A program made the position numbers and the translations under genes. A stretch of DNA of 64,000 bases from an uncultured Desulfovibrionaceae bacterium (GTDB lineage: Bacteria > Bacillota > Dethiobacteria > DTU022 > UBA8154), in contig CAZOOA010000001.1 in assembly GCA_964581355.1 (NCBI GenBank), forward strand, positions 46,922 to 110,921. The letters run 5' to 3'. Below the pieces are notes generated by a model. The model worked only from the letters and a program-made list of their open reading frames with translations. It did not search any database and was not told where the DNA came from. Shown here one piece after another: positions 4,583-46,335 of the stretch (position 1 is its first letter; each line of letters opens with the position of its first letter).

Positions 4583-4680
4583 TATGGTCAGGGGAGCGTA
4601 GGAAACGTGGAAAAGGAAGCAAGAGAACCGTCCCCATGCTGCCCCTTCCCTGCTTCCCCATACTTCCATGTTTCCGGGCT
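4583..4680 (+). repeat. degenerate copy or fragment of the dispersed hairpin-repeat family (arm-2-like segment ...AGAGAACCGTCCCCATGCTGCC...)
   Basis: Matches the conserved arm (GCGCCAGAACCGTCCCCCTGCTTCGC) of the copies at 20870, 25912, 36416, 36829 and 46178. A second related fragment in inverted orientation lies around 4800-4870. Confidence 0.4.
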
Positions 4681-4974: not shown

Positions 4975-5262
4975 CTTCGAGCCGGGGTGGGGTAGAGGTG
5001 CGGCTGGCAAAGAGTATGTTCGAGAAAAGACGGTCCTTGATGAAACGGACAGAAAGGTGCCGCCGCCGAAGTTTTTGGTCCAAGGCCGGAGGCCAGAAGC
5101 TGGTTTGCCAGTGAATAACTGGCAAACTGTCACCCGTTCGAAAGGCCCTTTTCCCGGGTGGAGCGCTATCTCGCTGTGGGCATTTTTGAGGTTGCTTCTT
5201 GCGGTTTAAAGCGGCTACGGGTTTATCGTTGGTCGCTTTTTTGTTTTAAAATTTCCCTGAGG
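4975..5262 (+). promoter_or_regulatory. lysine riboswitch (L-box) with expression platform upstream of lysA
   Basis: The conserved L-box blocks are present in order: AGAGGTGCG, AAAGAGTATG, GAGAAAAGA, GAAAGGTGCCGCCGCCGAAG and GAGCGCTATCTCGCTG. They are collinear with the B. subtilis lysC leader and lie immediately 5' of lysA. Confidence 0.8.
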
Positions 5263-5272
5263 GGGTGGATGT

Positions 5273-6577
5273 ATGATCATGTCCGGTTCGATGGAAATCA
5301 ATGCAAAAGGGAACCTGGAAATCGGGGGTTGCGATACGGTAGAACTGGCTAAACAGTTCGGGACGCCCCTGTTCGTGATGGATGAAGAACAGATCCGAAA
5401 TAACTGCAGGCAGTATGTGAATGCCTTGAAAAAGCACTACCCGAAGGGGATGGTATTGTTTGCCGGTAAGGCTTTCTTAACCCTGGCCATGACCCGCCTG
5501 GTACACGAGGAAGAAATGGGGTTGGACGTGGTTTCCGGGGGCGAACTTTTTACGGCAGTGAACGCCGGTTTTCCCGTGGAGCGGATTTATTACCACGGAA
5601 ACAACAAGTCGACCCGTGAGTTAGTCGACGCCATTAAGTCCGGGGTGGGCCGGATCGTTGTGGACAGTATCCCGGAACTGGAAGAAATTAAAGAACTGTC
5701 GGCCCAGTTTGCAGAGGGCAAGGTCTCGGTGCTCCTGCGCCTCAAGCCCGGTGTGGAAGCCCATACCCATGAATATATTTCTACAGGGCAGGAGGACTCC
5801 AAGTTCGGCTTTGGCCTAGCGGACGACAGTGCCATGGAGGCGGTGGAGTCCTGCCTGAAAGCTTCAGATTTGATTGACCTGAGAGGATTTCACTGTCATA
5901 TCGGCTCGATGATCTTCCAGCTGGAACCTTTTTCCGTTGCCACCCGGGTGATGGTGGAGTTTATGGACCGGGTCCGGGACAAAACCGGTTTTGTGGCCGA
6001 AGAACTGGATATGGGCGGTGGCTTGGGTATCCGCCACAAGCAGGAAGACGACCCTCCTTCCATTGAGAGGTTCGTGGAAAATATTGCCCTGACGTTGAAA
6101 AGCGCCTGCCAGAAACAGGATTTTCCCCTGCCCGAGTTGATGCTGGAGCCCGGGCGTTCCATTACGGGGGAAGCCGGAGCAACACTTTATACGGTAGGTG
6201 TGATTAAGGATATTCCGGGGATCCGGCGCTATGTTTCCGTTGACGGGGGCATGATGGACAATATCCGGCCGGCTCTTTACAGCGCGAAATATGAAGCAGC
6301 TATCTGCAACAAAATAGGCCAGGAGTCCGGGGAGCTGGTTACGCTGGCCGGGAAAGCCTGCGAGTCCGGGGATATTTTGATCCGGGATATTTATCTGCCG
6401 CCCCTGGAAAGCGGTGATATTGTTGCTGTATTCAGCACAGGCGCCTACTGTTATTCCATGTCCAGCAATTACAACCGGAATCCCCGCCCGGCTGTCGTTT
6501 TTGTCCGTAACGGTGAGCCGAGGATTGTTGTGCGCAGGGAATCGTACGAGGATTTGATTGCGCTGGATGTATTGTAG
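5273..6577 (+). CDS. lysA: diaminopimelate decarboxylase
   Basis: The 434-aa ORF is a PLP-dependent group IV decarboxylase and sits downstream of the L-box. Confidence 0.9.
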   Translation: MIMSGSMEINAKGNLEIGGCDTVELAKQFGTPLFVMDEEQIRNNCRQYVNALKKHYPKGMVLFAGKAFLTLAMTRLVHEEEMGLDVVSGGELFTAVNAGFPVERIYYHGNNKSTRELVDAIKSGVGRIVVDSIPELEEIKELSAQFAEGKVSVLLRLKPGVEAHTHEYISTGQEDSKFGFGLADDSAMEAVESCLKASDLIDLRGFHCHIGSMIFQLEPFSVATRVMVEFMDRVRDKTGFVAEELDMGGGLGIRHKQEDDPPSIERFVENIALTLKSACQKQDFPLPELMLEPGRSITGEAGATLYTVGVIKDIPGIRRYVSVDGGMMDNIRPALYSAKYEAAICNKIGQESGELVTLAGKACESGDILIRDIYLPPLESGDIVAVFSTGAYCYSMSSNYNRNPRPAVVFVRNGEPRIVVRRESYEDLIALDVL

Positions 6578-7706: not shown

Positions 7707-8885
7707 ATGAACGAACAAACATCAGAAAGAATTCGCCAGCTACCCCGGTATTTGTTTGCTGAGATCGACAAGAAGATTAAAGAGGCCATGAACAAGGGAG
7801 TCGATGTGATCAAGCTGGGTATCGGCGATCCCGACACCCCGACGCCAGACTATATCATCGAGCGCATGAAGGAAGAAGTGGCCAAGCCCCGCAATCATAC
7901 CTATCCTCCCGATGAAGGGTTGCAGGAATTCAGGGAAGCGGTGGCTGCTTATTACCAGAAAAGGCACAAAGTGGACCTGGACCCCGAGACCGAGGTCCTT
8001 CCCTTAATCGGTTCCAAGGAGGGTATTGCTCACATTGCCTTTTGCTTTACCGATCCCGGTGATGTGAACCTGGTGCCTGATCCCGGGTATCCTGTATATG
8101 GTATCGGGACCAAGTTTGCCGGGGGAGCTCCTCACCTGATGCCCCTGGTCAAAGAAAATGATTTTCTGCCCGTTTTTGACCATATCCCGGAAGAGGCCGC
8201 TCAAAAAAGCAAGCTTTTGTTTTTAAACTACCCCAACAACCCCACTGGCGCTGTTGCCTCCCCGGAGTTTTTCCAGGAAGCGGTGCAGTATGCCAAAAAA
8301 CATAACCTGGTTGTCTGCCATGATGCCGCCTACAGCGAGGTGGCCTTTGACGATTACGAGCCCTTAAGCTTCCTCGAGGTGGACGGGGGCAAGGATGTAG
8401 CCATCGAGTTTGGCTCCCTGGCCAAGACATTTAACATGACCGGGTGGCGGATTGGGTATGCCGTGGGCTGCCGGCAGGCCGTGGAAGCCCTGTACCGGTT
8501 TAAAACCAATGTAGATTCCGGGCTATTCAAGGCCATTCAGTACACAGGGGTGGAGGCGTTGAGCAATCCCAAAATGGAGCCCTTTATCAAGGAACTGCGG
8601 GAAATGTACCGTGAAAGGCGTGATGTGGTGGTCGATGCACTTCAGGAAGCGGGTTGGCCCATTGAAGCGCCCCGGGGCACTTTTTATGTCTGGGCACCTG
8701 TCCCCAAGGGCTACACCTCCCAGGATTTTGTAGCCCACCTGCTGGAAGAGACGGGGGTTGTAGTCACCCCGGGCAAAGGATTTGGTGAGCACGGTGAAGG
8801 ATATTTCCGCATTGCCCTGACCGTGGACAAGAACAGGATGCGTGAAGCCATGGAGCGGATTAAAAACACGGTTCAGTTTCGCTAA
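7707..8885 (+). CDS. dapL: LL-diaminopimelate aminotransferase (DapL-type class I aminotransferase)
   Basis: The N-terminus reads RYLFAEIDKKI...KLGIGDPD and the fold is aminotransferase class I/II. It is flanked by dapF/lysA upstream and asd/lysC downstream. The start was moved to the ATG at 7707, which has a GGAGGG RBS; the ORF-track start is 7659. Confidence 0.7.
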   Translation: MNEQTSERIRQLPRYLFAEIDKKIKEAMNKGVDVIKLGIGDPDTPTPDYIIERMKEEVAKPRNHTYPPDEGLQEFREAVAAYYQKRHKVDLDPETEVLPLIGSKEGIAHIAFCFTDPGDVNLVPDPGYPVYGIGTKFAGGAPHLMPLVKENDFLPVFDHIPEEAAQKSKLLFLNYPNNPTGAVASPEFFQEAVQYAKKHNLVVCHDAAYSEVAFDDYEPLSFLEVDGGKDVAIEFGSLAKTFNMTGWRIGYAVGCRQAVEALYRFKTNVDSGLFKAIQYTGVEALSNPKMEPFIKELREMYRERRDVVVDALQEAGWPIEAPRGTFYVWAPVPKGYTSQDFVAHLLEETGVVVTPGKGFGEHGEGYFRIALTVDKNRMREAMERIKNTVQFR

Positions 8886-16172: not shown

Positions 16173-17612
16173 ATGTTTGAACAGGTTGAGGATCTGGGGA
16201 TACTTTATCCCTCCTTGTTTGCCCGTTATGTGCAAAAAGATCCCGAAGTACTGTCTTGTTTTGCTGTTCCGTACCAGGAGATGGGCGTTTATCGACAACT
16301 GGCGGCAAGGCTTGCTGAAAGTCCCCCCTGGCAGCTGCCGAAAAAGCTTGTGGCGAAACAAAATGAAGGGATTTTAAAAAACCAGTCCAGGCTGTCCAGG
16401 TTGCTGAAGAAAAAAATTTTGGATGAAAACACGCTATTTGTCATCACCGGTCAGCAGCCGGGTCTGCTGACCGGTCCTGTTTACGGAATTTATAAAGCAA
16501 TGACAGCGGTGAAGCTGGCTGCCCGCCTGGAGGAACAGCTGCAAAGGCCTGTCCAGCCCCTGTTTTGGATCGCCGGCGAAGACCATAATGTTTTCGATTT
16601 AGTCCGGTTGTTCTTGCTGGATTCCCAGGGCAAACTGGCCCGGGTCCGCCTGAATTTTCCCGGATTTGGCCCTCCTGTAGGGGAAATTTGCCTGGACCAG
16701 GATGACATGCTGGCTGTGTTGAAACGCCTGGAAGAATTAACCCCGCAAAGTCCGTACAAAAATGAAGTGCTGCAAAGCTTACGGGAAATAACGATTCACT
16801 CCAGCACCATGACGGACTGGTTTGCAGGGCTGATGCAACTTCTTTTTCATCAGCACAAACTGGCCCTTTTGGATCCTTTGGATCTGTCCAAAAACGGTGC
16901 ATATATTCCTTTGCTGCTCAAAACGGTGGAACTGGGGCCGCAAATACACCAGTGCCTGGACTCAGCCGAGAAAAGCTTGGCCCAAAAAGGCTTTTCTCCC
17001 CAGGTTGACAGAACTGGACAGGAGTCTTTTCTCATGATAGTCTGGGAAGGACGACGGTACGCCCTGTACAGGGATGGAGACACTTTTTTTACGGCAAAAG
17101 GGGAGCTTTCCCTGACCCGCTACGAGCTGATCTCCATGTTCCAGTCAGAACCGTGGCGCTTTAGCCCCAATGTCTTGCTCCGCCCCCTGTTCCAGGACAG
17201 CCTATTCCCCAACCTGGCGTATATCCCCGGCCCTGGAGAACTGGCTTATTTTACGCAGTTGCAAGAAGTGTACCGGCTGTTTGGTCTGGAAATGCCTGTT
17301 TTATTTCCCCGCCTGGGGGTTACCTTGTTGGAAGCCTGGCAAAAGGAGCTGCAGCAGAAACATGGGTTTTCCTTTGCCGATGCCCTGACCTATGCCAGCT
17401 CTGCCTGTGAGGATCCGGCAAAAAAAGAAGGAGAACCGGTGGAAAAGGAAATGATCCGTCACTATGTCTGGCCCCGGTGCAGACCCCAGGAAAGAGTATT
17501 CAACCTGTTTCCTTTTTTGCTCCGGCACGGCTGGCCTTTTTGGGAAGATTTCTCGCGGAACTTTCCGGAACAGGAAGGACACTATCTGTATTCCTTGGGG
17601 AGTGAAAGATGA
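16173..17612 (+). CDS. bshC: bacillithiol biosynthesis cysteine-adding enzyme BshC
   Basis: Contains the diagnostic BshC motifs VITGQQPGLLTGPVYGIYKA and FWIAGEDHN. The product is 479 aa, somewhat short for BshC, and its stop is directly coupled to the bshB start. Confidence 0.75.
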   Translation: MFEQVEDLGILYPSLFARYVQKDPEVLSCFAVPYQEMGVYRQLAARLAESPPWQLPKKLVAKQNEGILKNQSRLSRLLKKKILDENTLFVITGQQPGLLTGPVYGIYKAMTAVKLAARLEEQLQRPVQPLFWIAGEDHNVFDLVRLFLLDSQGKLARVRLNFPGFGPPVGEICLDQDDMLAVLKRLEELTPQSPYKNEVLQSLREITIHSSTMTDWFAGLMQLLFHQHKLALLDPLDLSKNGAYIPLLLKTVELGPQIHQCLDSAEKSLAQKGFSPQVDRTGQESFLMIVWEGRRYALYRDGDTFFTAKGELSLTRYELISMFQSEPWRFSPNVLLRPLFQDSLFPNLAYIPGPGELAYFTQLQEVYRLFGLEMPVLFPRLGVTLLEAWQKELQQKHGFSFADALTYASSACEDPAKKEGEPVEKEMIRHYVWPRCRPQERVFNLFPFLLRHGWPFWEDFSRNFPEQEGHYLYSLGSER

Positions 17613-18325
17613 TGAAGCTGGACCTGCTGGCTTTTGGCCCGCACCCCGATGATGTGGAAATTGGCGCCGGTGGAACCTTGGCCCTTCATGCGGAGTTGGG
17701 TTATCGCTGTGGTATTGTTGACCTGACTGCAGGTGAAATGGCCAGTAACGGGACCGTGGAAGAGCGCCGGCATGAAGCCTGGCAGGCCCAACAAGCTCTG
17801 GGCTGCCTGAGCCGGGAATGTCTTCAACTCCCTGATGCCCACCTGGAAGTAAACCAGGAAGGCATTTACAAGGTAGTTTCCGCCTTGCGAAAATACCAGC
17901 CCGCAGTTGTCCTGGCCCCTTATTACAGGGATGACAGGCACCCTGACCACAGTGCCACCGGTGAGCTGGTCCGCCGTGCCGCATACCTTTCGGGACTGCG
18001 CCGGTTTCCTGTGGAAGGCGAACCTTTTCGCCCGCAAAAACTGCTGTTTTTCCTCTTATCGGTGCAGCGGGAGCCGGACCTGATCCTGGATGTTTCGTCT
18101 GTTTACGACAAAAAAGAAGAAGCGATTAAGGCCCACCAGAGCCAGTTTTTTCTACAACGTTCTGACCAGGAACCCACCATGGTAAATATACCCATTTTTT
18201 TGCGTTATATCAGGAGCAGGGATAGTTATTTCGGAACGCTTATCGGCGCTCTTTGGGGAGAGGGAATGGTGGTCAATGAAAAACCGGCAATTCCAGATCT
18301 TGTTGAGTGGAGTGGGTCAAGATGA
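17609..18325 (+). CDS. bshB: N-acetyl-alpha-D-glucosaminyl L-malate deacetylase (LmbE/PIG-L family)
   Basis: Contains the FGPHPDDVEIGAGGT motif typical of BshB1/LmbE. It overlaps bshC by 4 nt. Confidence 0.8.
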   Translation: MMKLDLLAFGPHPDDVEIGAGGTLALHAELGYRCGIVDLTAGEMASNGTVEERRHEAWQAQQALGCLSRECLQLPDAHLEVNQEGIYKVVSALRKYQPAVVLAPYYRDDRHPDHSATGELVRRAAYLSGLRRFPVEGEPFRPQKLLFFLLSVQREPDLILDVSSVYDKKEEAIKAHQSQFFLQRSDQEPTMVNIPIFLRYIRSRDSYFGTLIGALWGEGMVVNEKPAIPDLVEWSGSR

Positions 18326-19443
18326 AAATTGGTCAATTGTGCTTTCCGACCCCTGGTGGGAGCGGAGTGGTAGCAACCGAACTGGGAAAAGAACTGGCGC
18401 GAAAAGGACATGAAATTCATATCATTTCCTATGATTTGCCCTTTCGCCTGGGAGCTCAAGAAAATATCTACTACCATAAAGTGAACCTGCGCCAGTATCC
18501 TCTTTTTCCGCACCCTTTCCTGACAGTGGAAATAACAGCCAAGATTGTGGAGGTAATCAAAACGTATTCCCTGGATATCATTCACGTCCATTATGCGCTT
18601 CCCAATGTCCTTTCCGCTGTCCTGGCTCGGGAGATCGCCGGGGATGTCCGTATTGTTACCACAGTCCACGGCACGGACGTGACGGTTTGGGGTAAGGACC
18701 CTTCCATTAAACCGGTTATTCGTTACGGGTTGGAGCAAAGTGACGCTGTCAGCGCGGTATCCCGCAGCTTGAAAAGCGATGTCCGGGCCAACCTGGAACT
18801 GGAGAACCCGGTCCAGGTGATCTATAATTTCGTGGACACCCATTTTTATCAGCGGCTTCCTCAAAGTCCTGCAAGGAAATCCCTGGCTCGAGACGACGAA
18901 AAGATTATTCTTCATATCTCCAATTTCCGCCCGGTTAAAAGAATTGATGATCTTCTCCTGGCTTTCTCCCGCCTGGGCAAGACCTTTAAAAAAGCAGTGC
19001 TGGTTTTGGCCGGGGACGGGGAAGAGCGGGGCAATATCGAAGAGATGGCTGTAAGGTTGGGAATCAAATCCCGTGTAGTTTTCCTGGGAACCCAGGTGGA
19101 TCTGGTCCCCTTACTTTCTGCTGCGGACCTGTTCCTCCTCCCCTCGGAGAAAGAAAGCTTTGGGCTGGCAGCCCTGGAGGCGATGGCCTGCAGTGTTCCC
19201 GTTGTGGCTACAGAGACAGGGGGGATCCCGGAAATCGTCGAGCACGGGAAAACCGGGCTTTTGGTCCCTGTGGGCGATGTCAACGCCCTGGCGGGGGCTA
19301 TGCAGTCCATTTTGGACAACCCGGAGCTGCACCATCAAATGGGACTTTTGTCCCGGAAGAAAGCGGAAAATTTCTCTGTGGAGAGGATTATCCCCCAGTA
19401 TGAAGAATTTTATCAAAGTGGTTTTGTTCATGTCGGTTTCTGA
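18307..19443 (+). CDS. bshA: N-acetyl-alpha-D-glucosaminyl L-malate synthase (GT4 glycosyltransferase)
   Basis: The N-terminus [33 protein letters not shown] closely matches the BshA consensus. It overlaps bshB. Confidence 0.8.
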   Translation: [378 protein letters not shown]

Positions 19444-19526: not shown

Positions 19527-20153
19527 TTGATTGCAGTGGTAGACTACGGGATGGGAAATGTAACCAGTGTGCGCAATGGTTTCGAACTTTTAGGCATTGA
19601 AACGGTTTTGACCCATGATACCCTGGTTATGGACCGTTGTAAAGGCATTGTTGTGCCTGGAGTGGGGGCTTTTGGGTGTGCTGCTGATGACCTGGAACAG
19701 AAAGGGTTGATGGAGTACTTACAACACCGGGAAAGGCAGGGAACGTTTATCCTGGGTATTTGCCTGGGACTGCAGTTGTTCTTTGATGAGAGTGAAGAAG
19801 ACCCGGGCTTTGAAGGGATGCACCTTTTGCCCGGCCGGGTCATTCGCTTCCCCCACGGGGTGAAGGTCCCCCATATGGGCTGGAACCGGGTCTATTTTAC
19901 AAGAGAAGATCCTCTTTTTAACCAGGTCCCGGGGGAAAGCCATTTTTACTTTGCCCATTCTTTTTTTGCCAGCCCGGAAAACAAAGAACACGCCCTGGCC
20001 CATTGCAACTACGGTGCATCGTTTGCTGCTGCAGTAAAGAAAAACTCGGTATACGGCTTGCAGTTTCATCCGGAAAAAAGTGGCAGGTTGGGGCTGACGA
20101 TTTTGAAAAATTTTGAAAGGATGGTAGCCGATGCAGATCATTCCAGCAGTTGA
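19527..20153 (+). CDS. hisH: imidazole glycerol phosphate synthase, glutamine amidotransferase subunit
   Basis: The N-terminus (TTG start) reads IAVVDYGMGNV. A GAAGGAGG RBS lies upstream. Confidence 0.9.
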   Translation: MIAVVDYGMGNVTSVRNGFELLGIETVLTHDTLVMDRCKGIVVPGVGAFGCAADDLEQKGLMEYLQHRERQGTFILGICLGLQLFFDESEEDPGFEGMHLLPGRVIRFPHGVKVPHMGWNRVYFTREDPLFNQVPGESHFYFAHSFFASPENKEHALAHCNYGASFAAAVKKNSVYGLQFHPEKSGRLGLTILKNFERMVADADHSSS

Positions 20154-20856
20154 TCTCCATGGGGGCAAGTGTGTCCGCCTTTTGATGGGGGAAAGAGACC
20201 AGGAAACTGTCTACAGCGATAAACCGGCCCAGGTGGCATTGCAGTGGCAGCGGGCAGGAGCCCATCGCCTGCACCTGGTAGACCTGGACGGGGCTTTTGA
20301 CGGTGCCCCGGTAAATACGCCTGTTATTGAAGAGATTGTTTCCAACCTGTCTATCCCTGTTCAGCTTGGGGGGGGTATCCGTAGCGGGGAGATTGCTGCC
20401 AAGGCCCTGGAGTTGGGTGTTCAGCGGGTCATCCTGGGAACGGCTGCAGTGGAAAATCCCCACCTGGTTCGGGAACTGACCCAGGAATACGGGGATAGAA
20501 TTATTGTCGGCATCGATGCCCGGGATGGGATCGTGGCCATAAAGGGCTGGGTGAAAGGTTCGGGCTTTGATGCGGTGGGATTTGCCCTGACCATGCAGGA
20601 TTATGGTGTCAAAGAAATCATTTATACGGATATTTCCCGGGATGGCACACTGCAGGGGCCCAACCTTGCTGCCCTGGAGAATATGGCTGCACAATTAACC
20701 ATCCCCATTATTGCTTCCGGGGGGATCTCTTCCCTGGAAGACTTGAAAAACGTTCAAAAGCTAAAATCTGAGGGAGTCCACGGCATTATTATCGGTCAGG
20801 CCCTGTATGCTGGGCAGTTCACCTTGCAGGAAGCCCTGGCCGCTGTACAGAATTAA
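20131..20856 (+). CDS. hisA: 1-(5-phosphoribosyl)-5-[(5-phosphoribosylamino)methylideneamino]imidazole-4-carboxamide isomerase
   Basis: The N-terminus [17 protein letters not shown] begins a HisA TIM-barrel. Confidence 0.9.
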
Positions 20857-20869
20857 TATTTTATCATTT

Positions 20870-21015
20870 GTAATTGCTCAGCACTATTTTAAGCGAAGCT
20901 TTGGGGACTGTTTTGGTACTCCCGGAGTGAAGAGGAGGACCGACAGGAAAAGCTCCAGGACCATCCACCTGCTTCGCGGCAAGTCACACAATCAGATCAA
21001 GGCTGAGCCAGATGC
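20870..21015 (+). mobile_element. MITE-like hairpin element copy B (146 bp) inserted between hisA and hisF; flanked by a perfect 8-bp direct repeat TATCATTT
   Basis: The termini GTAATTGCTCAGC...GGCTGAGCCAGATGC form imperfect TIRs. The internal arms ...GGGGACTGTTTTGG... and ...GGACCATCCACCTGCTTCGCGG flank the conserved core GGAGGACCGACAGGAAAAGC. TATCATTT occurs at 20862-20869 and again at 21016-21023. Confidence 0.65.
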
Positions 21016-21091
21016 TATCATTTTCAACTATACTTGCTGGTTTACCGCAAGGCTTTTCAAGATCATATTTGTTTACTGGAGGGAGGATCTG

Positions 21092-21868
21092 TTGTTGGCA
21101 AAGCGTATAGTTCCCTGCCTGGATGTGAAAGATGGAAGAGTGGTGAAAGGGGTTCAATTTGTTGACCTGAGAGATGCAGGCGATCCAGTGGAACTGGCCC
21201 GGTTTTATGACAGTTCAGGGGCAGATGAACTGGTGTTTTTGGACATAACTGCATCCTACGAAAAGCGTGAGACCATGGTTGATGTGGCTCGCAGGACGGC
21301 CCGGGAGGTTTTCATCCCCTTTATTGTCGGTGGGGGGATCGATAACCTGGAACATATTCGGGCCATACTCAAAGCGGGGGCCGATAAGATCTCGCTAAAT
21401 ACCTCTGCTGTAAAAACTCCCCAGTTGATCCGGGAAGGAGCTCATACCTTTGGAAGCCAGTGTATCGTGGTAGCCATTGACGCCTGCTGGAACGAAGAGC
21501 TGGATGATTGGGAGGTTTACACCCACGGGGGGCGGACCCCAACGGGAATGTTAGCATTAAAATGGGCGGAAGAGGTGGAAAGCCTGGGCGCGGGAGAAAT
21601 CCTGCTGACCAGCATGAATGCCGACGGGGGGCAGGACGGATTTGATCTTCCATTAAACCGGGCAGTGGCGGAACGGGTAAACATACCCGTAATTGCTTCA
21701 GGCGGTGCAGGCAAAATAGAACATTTTGCCCAGGTATTGACCGAAGGAAAGGCAGATGCAGCCCTGGCGGCCTCGGTCTTTCACTTCCGCCAGTTTTCTG
21801 TTATGGAAGTAAAGAACTACTTACAGCAACAGGGTGTGGAGGTGCGTATGACCCATGAGCAGGGATAA
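21092..21868 (+). CDS. hisF: imidazole glycerol phosphate synthase, cyclase subunit
   Basis: Reads [20 protein letters not shown]... The start is placed at the TTG at 21092/21095 after a GGGAGG RBS. The ORF-track upstream extension (from 20807) reads through the repeat element and is unlikely to be translated. Confidence 0.9.
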
Positions 21869-25837: not shown

Positions 25838-25911
25838 GTATTCCCGGAAGATTGTATATTTTTCCTTTGCACCGGGCAAAAAAAAGGATAAAATAAATGT
25901 AAGGTTTTATC

Positions 25912-26020
25912 CAACTGCTCAGGGCTTTTGTAAGCGAGGTTGTGGAACAGTTCGGTCGCTCCCAAGGAAGCAGGGAAGCATGAGAACCGTCCCCTTGCTT
26001 CCTGTGTGCAGTTGTGTTAC
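25912..26020 (+). repeat. hairpin-repeat family copy C (short variant, about 109 bp) between aroB and the HD-domain gene
   Basis: Runs CAACTGCTCAGGGCTTTTGTAAGCGAGG...GAGAACCGTCCCCTTGCTTCC...GCAGTTGTGTTAC. It aligns with copies B, E and F but has a shorter loop. The flanking TTTT-rich direct repeats are only weak. Confidence 0.55.
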
Positions 26021-26035
26021 TTTTTGACAAAGCAG

Positions 26036-36364: not shown

Positions 36365-36415
36365 AATCGCTAGCCTCCTGTTTGGATGAAAAGAAACGGG
36401 GATGAAAAGAATTTT

Positions 36416-36606
36416 TAGCTGATCAGCGCTATTTACAAGCGAACCTGTTGGGACCGTTCCGGCGCCTCTGGGACGCAGCACAGGCTTCAGGGACATTTCT
36501 CTGGTATTTAGCGGTGTTCCTTCATTTTTTGAATAACGGGAAAGCGCCAGTATTGCCCCACTGCTTCGCTGCGTGTCGCGTAATCACACCAGGGCGGAGC
36601 AGTAAC
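36416..36606 (+). repeat. hairpin-repeat family copy D (long-loop variant, about 191 bp) in the amidase/hisS divergent intergenic region
   Basis: Runs TAGCTGATCAGCGCTATTTACAAGCGAACC-TGTTGGGACCGTTCCGGCGCC...GGGAAAGCGCCAGTATTGCCCCACTGCTTCGCTGCG...GGGCGGAGCAGTAAC. It has the same orientation as copy E, which lies 222 bp downstream. Confidence 0.55.
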
Positions 36607-36759: not shown

Positions 36760-36789
36760 TTGACAAGGCCTGGTTAATTAGCTTAAAAT
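36760..36789 (+). promoter_or_regulatory. sigma-A promoter (TTGACA-17 bp-TTAAAAT) for hisS-aspS
   Basis: TTGACA at 36760-36765 and TAAAAT at 36784-36789. The transcript would carry repeat copy E in its 5' UTR. Confidence 0.5.
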
Positions 36790-36828
36790 CAACTTGTATC
36801 TGAACAAAAACGAAACGAATCACGGAGG

Positions 36829-36970
36829 TAATTGCTCAGAGCTATTTGCAAGTGAAGCCGTGGGGACGGTTCTGGCGCTTCCGGAGCGTAGCGGAGGACC
36901 GACAGGGAAAGCGACAGAACTGTCCCCCTGCTTCGCGGTGTGTGGTGTAGTAAGTGGGCTGAGCAGTTAC
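36829..36970 (+). mobile_element. MITE-like hairpin element copy E (142 bp) inserted at the hisS ribosome-binding site; flanked by 9-bp direct repeats TCACGGAGG / TCATGGAGG
   Basis: The TIR is TAATTGCTCAG...CTGAGCAGTTAC. The internal 25-bp imperfect stem is GAAGCCGTGGGGACGGTTCTGGCGC / GCGACAGAACTGTCCCCCTGCTTC, around the core GGAGGACCGACAGGGAAAGC. The downstream direct repeat supplies the GGAGG RBS 7 nt before the hisS ATG. Confidence 0.65.
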
Positions 36971-36986
36971 TCATGGAGGCTATCCG

Positions 36987-40185: not shown

Positions 40186-40515
40186 AAAATTGCGAAAAAT
40201 GCAAGGGATATTCCCTACTGTGTGCGTGTAAAATCGCGAATGTTTTGAGCTAACACTAACGAAATGGGAGCCTGGACTTTACATGCGGCGCAGAAGCCTT
40301 GGTCGGAACGAGGACCTGCAAAGCATGTAAGAGGGCACCCACCTTGAGAGAGGGCGTTCAAAACAAGCGGTCCACGGCACAGTGGGGTTATTTTATTTGT
40401 GCCTGTTTTTACGATCAAGCCAGCAGAAAGCCCACGGCTTTAGCCGAGGGATGAATACTTAATAGACAGTTGACTTGATGGTTGAGTCGGGTATTTTGTT
40501 GCCGGGGGTGAGGAA

Positions 40516-46094: not shown

Positions 46095-46177
46095 ACTTCT
46101 TTGGTTAAACCGGTATTTGTATCCTGCTTGGTGTAAATACTAGTAGCCTGTGAAGGAGAAAAAAGATACAATGAATG

Positions 46178-46335
46178 TAATTGCTCAGGAGATGTATTGT
46201 TCAGATCTATTTATAAGCTAGGCTGTGAGGACTGTTCGTGCGTTTCCTGAGTAAAGCGAAGGACCAAATGGGAAAGCGCCAGAACCGTCCCCCTGCTTCG
46301 CAAGGTATGAAGCAAAGTTGGGCTGAAAGCTATTG
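46178..46335 (+). mobile_element. MITE-like hairpin element copy F (about 158 bp) between the class B PBP gene and murE in the dcw cluster
   Basis: Runs TAATTGCTCAGG...(internal partial duplication TTGTTCAGATCTATTTATAAGC)...GGGAAAGCGCCAGAACCGTCCCCCTGCTTCGC...GGGCTGAAAGCTATTG. It is flanked by ATGAAT / ATGAAC direct repeats (imperfect). Confidence 0.55.

Follow-up and report, generated by a model that had tools for sequence, protein, structure and literature searches.

A probable MITE copy with IS66-type ends, flanked by a perfect 8-bp duplication, lengthens the hisA-hisF spacer

The spacer between hisA and hisF in the window (the whole 64,000-nucleotide stretch of DNA that was analysed) contains a 146-bp insert, here called copy B, which is very probably an old and decayed MITE copy with ends of the IS66 family (ISBst12 group) and an intact 8-bp target duplication. 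Direct reading bore out what had been noted from the letters alone, namely that two TATCATTT octamers flank a 146-bp element inside a spacer of 235 bp (20857-21091). The accompanying claim that this is the mark of a transposition event now has the support of family copies, repeat-defined boundaries, 8-bp flanks, IS66-type ends, and empty sites. As for the junction of hisA and hisF, which the sequence-only reading had supposed to be near-abutting before the insertion, its lengthening by an insert stands, and the term near-abutting is slightly overstated, there being 40 bp in the relatives.

At the left of the spacer, the stop codon of hisA (TAA) occupies 20854-20856, and the intervening 146 bp begin at the 5' end with GTAATTGCTCAGC and finish at the 3' end with GCTGAGCCAGATGC. 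To the right, hisF has its Shine-Dalgarno sequence GGAGGGAGG at 21079-21087 and a TTG start codon at 21092, with a second TTG at 21095. The right terminal repeat of copy B was placed by aligning it with the right end of the best-preserved copy, C2 (GTAACTGCTCAGC), as well as by an arm-versus-arm alignment. The coordinates of these features and of the other family copies, together with the flanking octamers, are collected in Table 1.

Table 1. Features of the hisA-hisF spacer, copies of the repeat family in the window, and agreement between the octamers on either side of each copy
Feature	Positions	Strand	Basis	Flanks, left / right	Matches
Solo inner-arm fragment AAGGAAGCAAGAGAACCGTCCCCATGCTGC, same repeat superfamily	4613..4643	+
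hisA, intact upstream neighbour	20131..20856	+	NCBIfam TIGR00007, 4e-84
Left target-site duplication of copy B, TATCATTT	20862..20869		read directly; same as 21016-21023
Copy B, probable 146-bp MITE, decayed palindrome, hisA-hisF spacer	20870..21015	+	nhmmer E 2.8e-37	TATCATTT / TATCATTT	8/8
Copy B left terminal inverted repeat, GTAATTGCTCAGC	20870..20882	+	exact match to GTAAYTGCTCAGC
Copy B right terminal inverted repeat, degenerate, reverse complement GCATCTGGCTCAGC	21002..21015	-	alignment to C2
Right target-site duplication of copy B, TATCATTT	21016..21023		direct reading
hisF, true extent	21092..21868	+	NCBIfam TIGR00735, 3.6e-115, profile positions 1-254 covered
Copy E, shortened and degenerate, between aroB and HD-domain gene	25899..26020	+	nhmmer E 5.4e-9; both ends GTAA	AAATAAAT / TTTTTGAC	~1/8, no detectable duplication
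Copy C1, ~46-nt apical insertion, upstream of hisS promoter	36415..36606	+	nhmmer E 2.8e-34	AAGAATTT / AAGGTTTT	6/8
Copy C2, best-preserved, hisS 5' UTR	36828..36970	+	nhmmer E 7e-43; 12-bp perfect terminal repeats	TCACGGAG (36820-36827) / TCATGGAG (36971-36978)	7/8
Copy D, between spoVD and murE	46177..46333	+	nhmmer E 6e-36	CAATGAAT / TGATGAAC	5/8

Several other aspects of the locus may be recorded here. Between the right duplication of copy B and the conserved hisF upstream region TCAACTATACTTGCTGGTTTACCGCAAGGCTTTTCAAGATCA lie ~41 bp (21024-21066) that are absent from both groups of relatives, and within them we noticed a small hairpin, CTTGC-N9-GCAAG followed by GCTTTTC, which the terminator scan did not flag. 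Directly upstream of hisH-hisA-hisF-hisIE are the bacillithiol genes bshC, bshB1, and bshA (window 16173-19443), an order that is kept in all relatives examined, and hisG, hisD, hisC, and hisB are not adjacent to this gene group.

Copy B is one member of a repeat family represented in the window by at least five copies and one solo fragment; the five copies are all on the plus strand, as are almost all of the window genes. A blastn search of the window with the copy B region returned related plus-strand sequences near 36828, 46196, and 36411, and a hidden Markov model (HMM) built from the copies found in this way added, by nhmmer, a shorter one at 25908-26031 (E 5.4e-9). Copy coordinates were then refined by means of the terminal repeats, and the neighbouring genes were identified by profile matches. 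Pairwise identity among the five copies is 68-79% (74-78% for copy B against the others), and members of the family are 110-192 bp long and lack coding capacity for a transposase, the only ORF across copy B being a spurious extension of hisF. The interior of C2 is near-palindromic (AAGYGAAGC/GCTTCGC and GGGGACGGTTCTGGCGC/GCGACAGAACTGTCCCC, arranged around an asymmetric apical segment). In C1, the right repeat lies at 36594-36606 and the apical insertion roughly at 36486-36531, and the left end of copy D is partly duplicated in tandem (GTAATTGCTCAGGAGATGTATTGTTCAG, window 46177-46210). Outside the window, a 5'-truncated family copy that is 92% identical to C2 was found on a metagenome contig (L014, Ga0207421_10001512, 7730-7866, minus strand), where it occupies an unrelated intergenic region just after a terminator-like hairpin and is co-oriented with the flanking genes; this copy alone suggests that the family was active comparatively recently. 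Among metagenome contigs, a scan with the pattern GRAAAGCNNCAGNANNNNCCNNCTGCTTCGC gave this one true copy and one chance match, and among genome contigs it gave only a chance match, in Granulicella; the pattern was probably too strict for contig scans. Taken together, we find short non-coding sequences with terminal repeats, 8-bp duplications, dispersed copies, and empty sites at three loci, and we regard the family of copy B as a new one among MITEs, a well-known kind of element.

The ends of each copy were fixed by alignment to the terminal repeats of C2, and the flanking 8-mers were compared afterwards. Here, the null was provided by 200,000 random draws of 8-mer pairs lying 100-200 bp apart in this window, from whose empirical tail the single-test probabilities of 8/8, 7/8, 6/8, and 5/8 matches are 1.5e-5, 5.8e-4, 5.9e-3, and 0.033, respectively, and the flank matches of copies B, C2, C1, and D are jointly far beyond chance. 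Since the octamers of copy B stand exactly at the ends predicted from the C2 terminal repeats, they are not part of the element; the sequence-only reading, in treating them as external flanks, was therefore right, the repeat-defined boundaries and the octamer boundaries being exactly coincident. The copies are only ~75% identical, yet the copy B duplication is perfect, and by our own estimate about two mismatches would be expected, with P(0) ~0.13, which counts against the MITE reading.

The terminal inverted repeats of C2 are perfect over 12 bp (GTAATTGCTCAG...CTGAGCAGTTAC, 12/12 complementary), and recognisable degenerate versions of them terminate copies B, C1, and D. With up to two mismatches allowed, GTAAYTGCTCAGC occurs 10 times in the window against an expected 1.9. 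A GTAA start is seen at the left ends of B, C2, and D (each GTAATTGC), at the right end of C2 (GTAACTGC), and at both ends of E. Terminal repeats of IS66 elements begin with GTAAGCG, and these elements have 8-bp direct repeats (PMC11946415). ISDge4, a member of the ISBst12 group of the IS66 family with a single 449-aa transposase, has the repeats GTGACTACTCAGCA/GTAACTGCTCAGCA and the 8-bp direct repeat CCTCGATG (PMC12898284). In fact, the left end of copy B (GTAATTGCTCAGCA) agrees with the ISDge4 repeat GTAACTGCTCAGCA at 13/14 positions. Similarly, we looked at Geobacillus kaustophilus pHTA426 (NC_006509), where a single-ORF insertion sequence (IS) encodes a 485-aa protein annotated as 'IS66-like element ISGka4 family transposase', with matches to PF03050 DDE_Tnp_IS66 (1.9e-64) and to zf-IS66. 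The ends of this IS are GTATCTATTCAGCCC/GTAACTATTCAGCCC and its 8-bp duplication GACGAGTT is perfect; the C2 right end, read on the reverse strand (GTAACTGCTCAGCCC), matches its repeat at 13/15 positions. Judged by their GTAA ends, 8-bp duplication, and extended repeat similarity to family members, the window copies would thus have IS66/ISBst12 termini. Both the type of end and the length of the duplication are those of IS66/ISBst12, which fits with a transposase of this group acting in trans, and we infer that such an enzyme exists in the source organism. None of the window ORFs that we examined stood out as a transposase gene, and no autonomous IS66/ISBst12 element with these ends was found within the 64 kb, which counts against the MITE reading.

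HisF homologues led us to syntenic loci, arranged bshCBA-hisHAF-IE-rrf2-aroC-aroB, in soda-lake MAGs and sediment metagenomes, with HisF being 87% identical. The relatives with empty sites at the three loci are distant ones (~70% nucleotide identity), and the nearest named HisF and HisS homologues, at 55-71% identity, are from Dethiobacteria, Dethiobacter, and Ca. Contubernalis. Seven contigs (L005-L008 and L010-L012) have a hisA-hisF spacer of 40 bp (taaGGCAGGCCTATCTTTTTGTATTTATTGGAGGGATGATCAGgtg), in which one TATCTTTT takes the place of the two TATCATTT that enclose the element in the window. Accordingly, an empty site with one octamer, which had been proposed as the thing to look for in related genomes, does exist. 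C2 is absent from L015-L018, in which the ribosome-binding region of hisS is uninterrupted (...TGACGGAGGCATCCCGATG in L017, with equivalents in L015, L016, and L018), and the relatives keep the same hisS promoter (TTGACA-18-TAAAAT, window 36760-36789); it follows that C2 landed in the Shine-Dalgarno region and duplicated TCAYGGAG. Copy D is likewise missing from the spoVD-murE spacer of L020 and L021. For D and E, the spacers are too diverged for an exact empty site to be defined, and what they show is just that the element is missing. Within the source species, copy B is carried with identical sequence by three of three independent Logan assemblies and hence is fixed there.

The relatives also hold sequences related to the family. 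In L009 (GCA_036681025), the hisA-hisF spacer is ~120 bp long, contains GACAGGAAAAGGGAAGCGCCAGGAC and a duplicated GAACCGTCCCCGTGCTTCCAC, and ends with ...GCATGC followed by TCATTTTTATTTACTGGAGGG; this degenerate sequence (L009 3827-3893) belongs, in rearranged form, to the same repeat superfamily. By gene-based distances, the three lineages group as (window,(L009,L006)), with nucleotide identities of 70/71/74%, so that orthology of copy B and the L009 remnant would need a loss in the L006 lineage. There may have been two separate colonisations of the hisA-hisF spacer, or else one ancient insertion that the L006 lineage has since lost, and the presence of related sequence in the same spacer leaves the age and the independence of the copy B insertion ambiguous. 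In L017 (17-115 and 963-1073), there are two palindromes of ~100 nt with perfect 31-bp arms (GGAAGCACGGGGACGGTTCTCTTGCTTCC/GGAAGCAAGAGAACCGTCCCCGTGCTTCC), and one of the two takes the position that C1 has in the window, upstream of the hisS promoter. The palindromes share homology with the window elements in the inner arms, the solo fragment at 4613-4643 matching the 3' arm at ~27/29 positions, and they lack the IS66-type ends GTAAYTGCTCAG. The family may accordingly be composite, with a REPIN-like core placed between IS66 ends. We also noticed that the L017 and L018 contigs begin inside or beside such repeats, which suggests that the repeats break assemblies.

Folding was judged against shuffled sequence. 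For C2, the predicted energy is -71.4 kcal/mol (z -6.3) on the plus strand and -54.1 kcal/mol (z -5.05) on the minus strand, and such good folding on both strands is to be expected of a DNA palindrome; copy B, with z of -0.67 and -1.09, folds no better than shuffled sequence. Across the five copies, RNAalifold gave no covariation, the term of +4.92 kcal/mol being a penalty, with a double change in only 4 of 43 pairs and many pairs broken. Nor did the arm-versus-arm alignments show an excess of G-U (15, as against 14 A-C mismatches), which is how a DNA palindrome in neutral decay, and not a selected plus-strand RNA, would look; RNA-level selection on the element was rejected on this count. Membership of a known RNA family was discarded too, because Rfam, searched at the gathering threshold over the whole window and the copies and at E<=10 over the copies, gave no relevant match, the sub-threshold matches on the copies being only spurious miRNA and frameshift-element ones. 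Elsewhere in the window, the same database identified a lysine riboswitch at 4985-5176 (106.8 bits), upstream of the ORF at 5273-6577, and a 6S RNA at 40209-40392 (96.9 bits), between aspS and mgtE. The suggestion in the sequence-only reading that the hairpin might attenuate read-through into hisF-hisIE was not sustained: no promoter-like or terminator-like site was found in 20857-21091, and given this and the z values of copy B, a hairpin-terminator role was dropped. C2, for its part, has the predicted hisS promoter (36760-36789) on its 5' side and the start codon of hisS (36987) on its 3' side, and its -71 kcal/mol hairpin thus directly precedes the ribosome-binding site of the essential hisS-aspS operon, the duplicated TCAYGGAG being the Shine-Dalgarno sequence itself.

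A consequence of copy B concerns annotation. The 353-aa ORF that runs from ATG 20807 (20807-21868) is the public HisF call (P0001), and it is over-extended by ~95 residues, overlapping the end of hisA and reading through the MITE. HisF homologues have 252-259 aa and align from TTG 21092, with the GTG start of a relative aligning at that very codon, and the TIGR00735 profile is fully covered from residue 1 of the HisF so defined. The in-frame fusion of element and hisF had been taken for an artefact of the ORF track, and both the profile and the homologue lengths agree with this. One exception among the homologues is the L009 HisF call (283 aa), which is over-extended likewise.

On this evidence, copy B would be a 146-bp non-coding element bounded by repeats (GTAAYTGCTCAGC) of the type found in single-ORF IS66-family (ISBst12-group) elements. 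A DDE transposase supplied in trans would have placed it in the AT-rich spacer between hisA and hisF, with staggered cleavage of the target and subsequent repair presumably giving rise to the duplicated octamer TATCATTT, as the signature implies. The spacer would thereby have grown from ~40-80 bp to 235 bp. With its right terminal repeat and internal palindrome decayed, copy B appears to be old and a poor substrate for transposase, and it is presumably a passive passenger within the hisH-hisA-hisF-hisIE transcript. As it has neither promoter nor terminator, copy B is most likely neutral for his expression, and its sole demonstrable consequence is a stop-free frame that misleads gene callers to a 353-aa 'HisF'.

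Other explanations were weighed against the same observations. One would have it that the two octamers form a direct repeat by chance or as native sequence, and that the 146 bp are ancestral spacer with no insertion at all. The spacer is AT-rich, a TATCWTTT-like sequence is native upstream of hisF in the relatives, and the L009 spacer has its related sequence, all of which would suit such a view; it is nevertheless very improbable, given the probability of an 8/8 match, the abutment of the octamers on boundaries that the terminal repeats of other copies set without reference to them, the recurrence of the flank pattern at C2, C1, and D, and the empty site in L005-L008 and L010-L012. Even harder to credit is a cis-regulatory RNA (a riboswitch, a T-box-like element, or a leader) that senses histidine or tRNA-His. 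The idea draws on the position of three of the five copies beside his genes (B, C1, and C2) and on hisS, for which the Rfam search revealed no T-box leader. It is opposed by the other copies, which precede murE and the HD-domain gene, by the relatives, whose hisS and hisF lack the element and have the same promoter and ribosome-binding site, and by the failure to find any Rfam match, covariation, or terminator/anti-terminator arrangement, and the target duplications point instead to insertion at the DNA level. Altogether, a histidine or tRNA-His leader is effectively refuted by the empty sites, with the murE and HD-domain contexts, the lack of covariation, and the flanking duplications all speaking to the same end.

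Less easily dismissed, but still unlikely, is a palindrome of REP/REPIN or ERIC type that is maintained by the host, serving within operons as an RNA hairpin or protein-binding site that modulates mRNA stability or processing, with the IS66-like ends and flanking repeats being secondary to its present role. All six oriented copies (the five of the window and that of L014) are co-directional with the flanking genes, which would be unpredicted for purely neutral insertions (p about 0.03, small sample) and so counts against the MITE reading. The inner arms (GGGGACGGTTCT.../...AGAACCGTCCCCNTGCTTC) are kept across genus-level divergence, and they are common to the L017 palindromes, perfect 31-bp inverted doublets of ~100 nt without IS66-type ends, which is a further point against the MITE reading and may reflect a composite origin. 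Moreover, related sequences recur in the same spacers across lineages (hisA-hisF in L009, upstream of the hisS promoter in L017), and C2 forms its stable hairpin within the hisS 5' UTR. Set against these points are the lack of covariation, the frequent broken pairs, the equality of G-U and A-C mismatches, the fold of copy B, no better than shuffled, the element's absence from orthologous spacers in relatives, and gene contexts (aroB/HD, hisF, hisS, murE) that are mutually unrelated; this reading would also fail to account for the duplication statistics and for ends that match IS66. Nonetheless, the inner palindrome (GGAAGC..GGGGACGGTTCT / AGAACCGTCCCC..GCTTCC) persists across soda-lake Bacillota lineages, again at genus-level divergence, and it comes in three forms: solo units, REPIN-like doublets, and the core of IS66-ended MITEs. 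Repeatedly found in the hisA-hisF spacer and upstream of hisS, it has in every case the orientation of transcription. Such co-orientation, deep conservation, and same-spacer recurrence leave a small residual chance that the family has been domesticated (to stabilise or process mRNA, for example, or to bind a host protein), or else that it arose by hybrid mobilisation of a REPIN-like unit between IS66 ends.

If copy B is a MITE copy with IS66-type ends, as we favour, its main practical value is that it explains a mis-annotated public HisF of 353 aa in place of ~258 aa. Beyond this, the family documents a MITE with ends of IS66/ISBst12 type. To our knowledge, the mechanism of IS66/ISBst12 transposases is poorly characterised, their non-autonomous derivatives are rarely described, and IS66-derived MITEs are not commonly described as a class. 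The window also illustrates that such elements are tolerated within an operon for amino-acid biosynthesis and, in the case of one copy, 9 bp ahead of the start codon of hisS, an essential gene. The family probably fragments MAGs of this soda-lake Bacillota lineage as well, with contigs of relatives starting inside such repeats. Nothing here suggests new biology of histidine regulation; copy B is ordinary genome litter and not a regulator.

A comparison with known systems places the family closest in its ends to the IS66/ISBst12 insertion sequences (ISDge4 and the ISGka4 family element of pHTA426). Family and insertion sequences alike have GTAA followed by (C/T)T..TCAGC, an 8-bp duplication, and a location in intergenic, AT-rich DNA. 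The window element, however, is only 143-192 bp long and lacks a transposase gene, and the long palindrome that makes up its interior bears no relation to the IS interior. In size (~100-200 bp) and in near full-length hairpin potential, it resembles the Correia/NEMIS elements of Neisseria, the ERIC elements of enterobacteria, and RUP/BOX of Streptococcus pneumoniae, as it does in having terminal inverted repeats with target duplications and multiple copies in spacers and inside operons, where they are co-transcribed with their neighbours. For Correia elements, RNase processing and promoter creation are documented, whereas the present analysis gave no evidence of either for the window family. 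In sequence, however, the window family is unrelated to all of these, and its duplication length and termini indicate a different transposase family from those of Correia, which duplicates TA, and of the IS630-like RUP. The window copies have DDE-type terminal repeats and 8-bp duplications, both of which are lacking in REP/REPIN sequences (RAYT, IS200/IS605-like transposases), and they have no REP head of GTAG type. Similar to REP/REPIN, on the other hand, are the inverted doublets of L017, made up of a 29-31-nt unit repeated 37-51 nt apart, and the occurrence of solo units, as at window 4613-4643.
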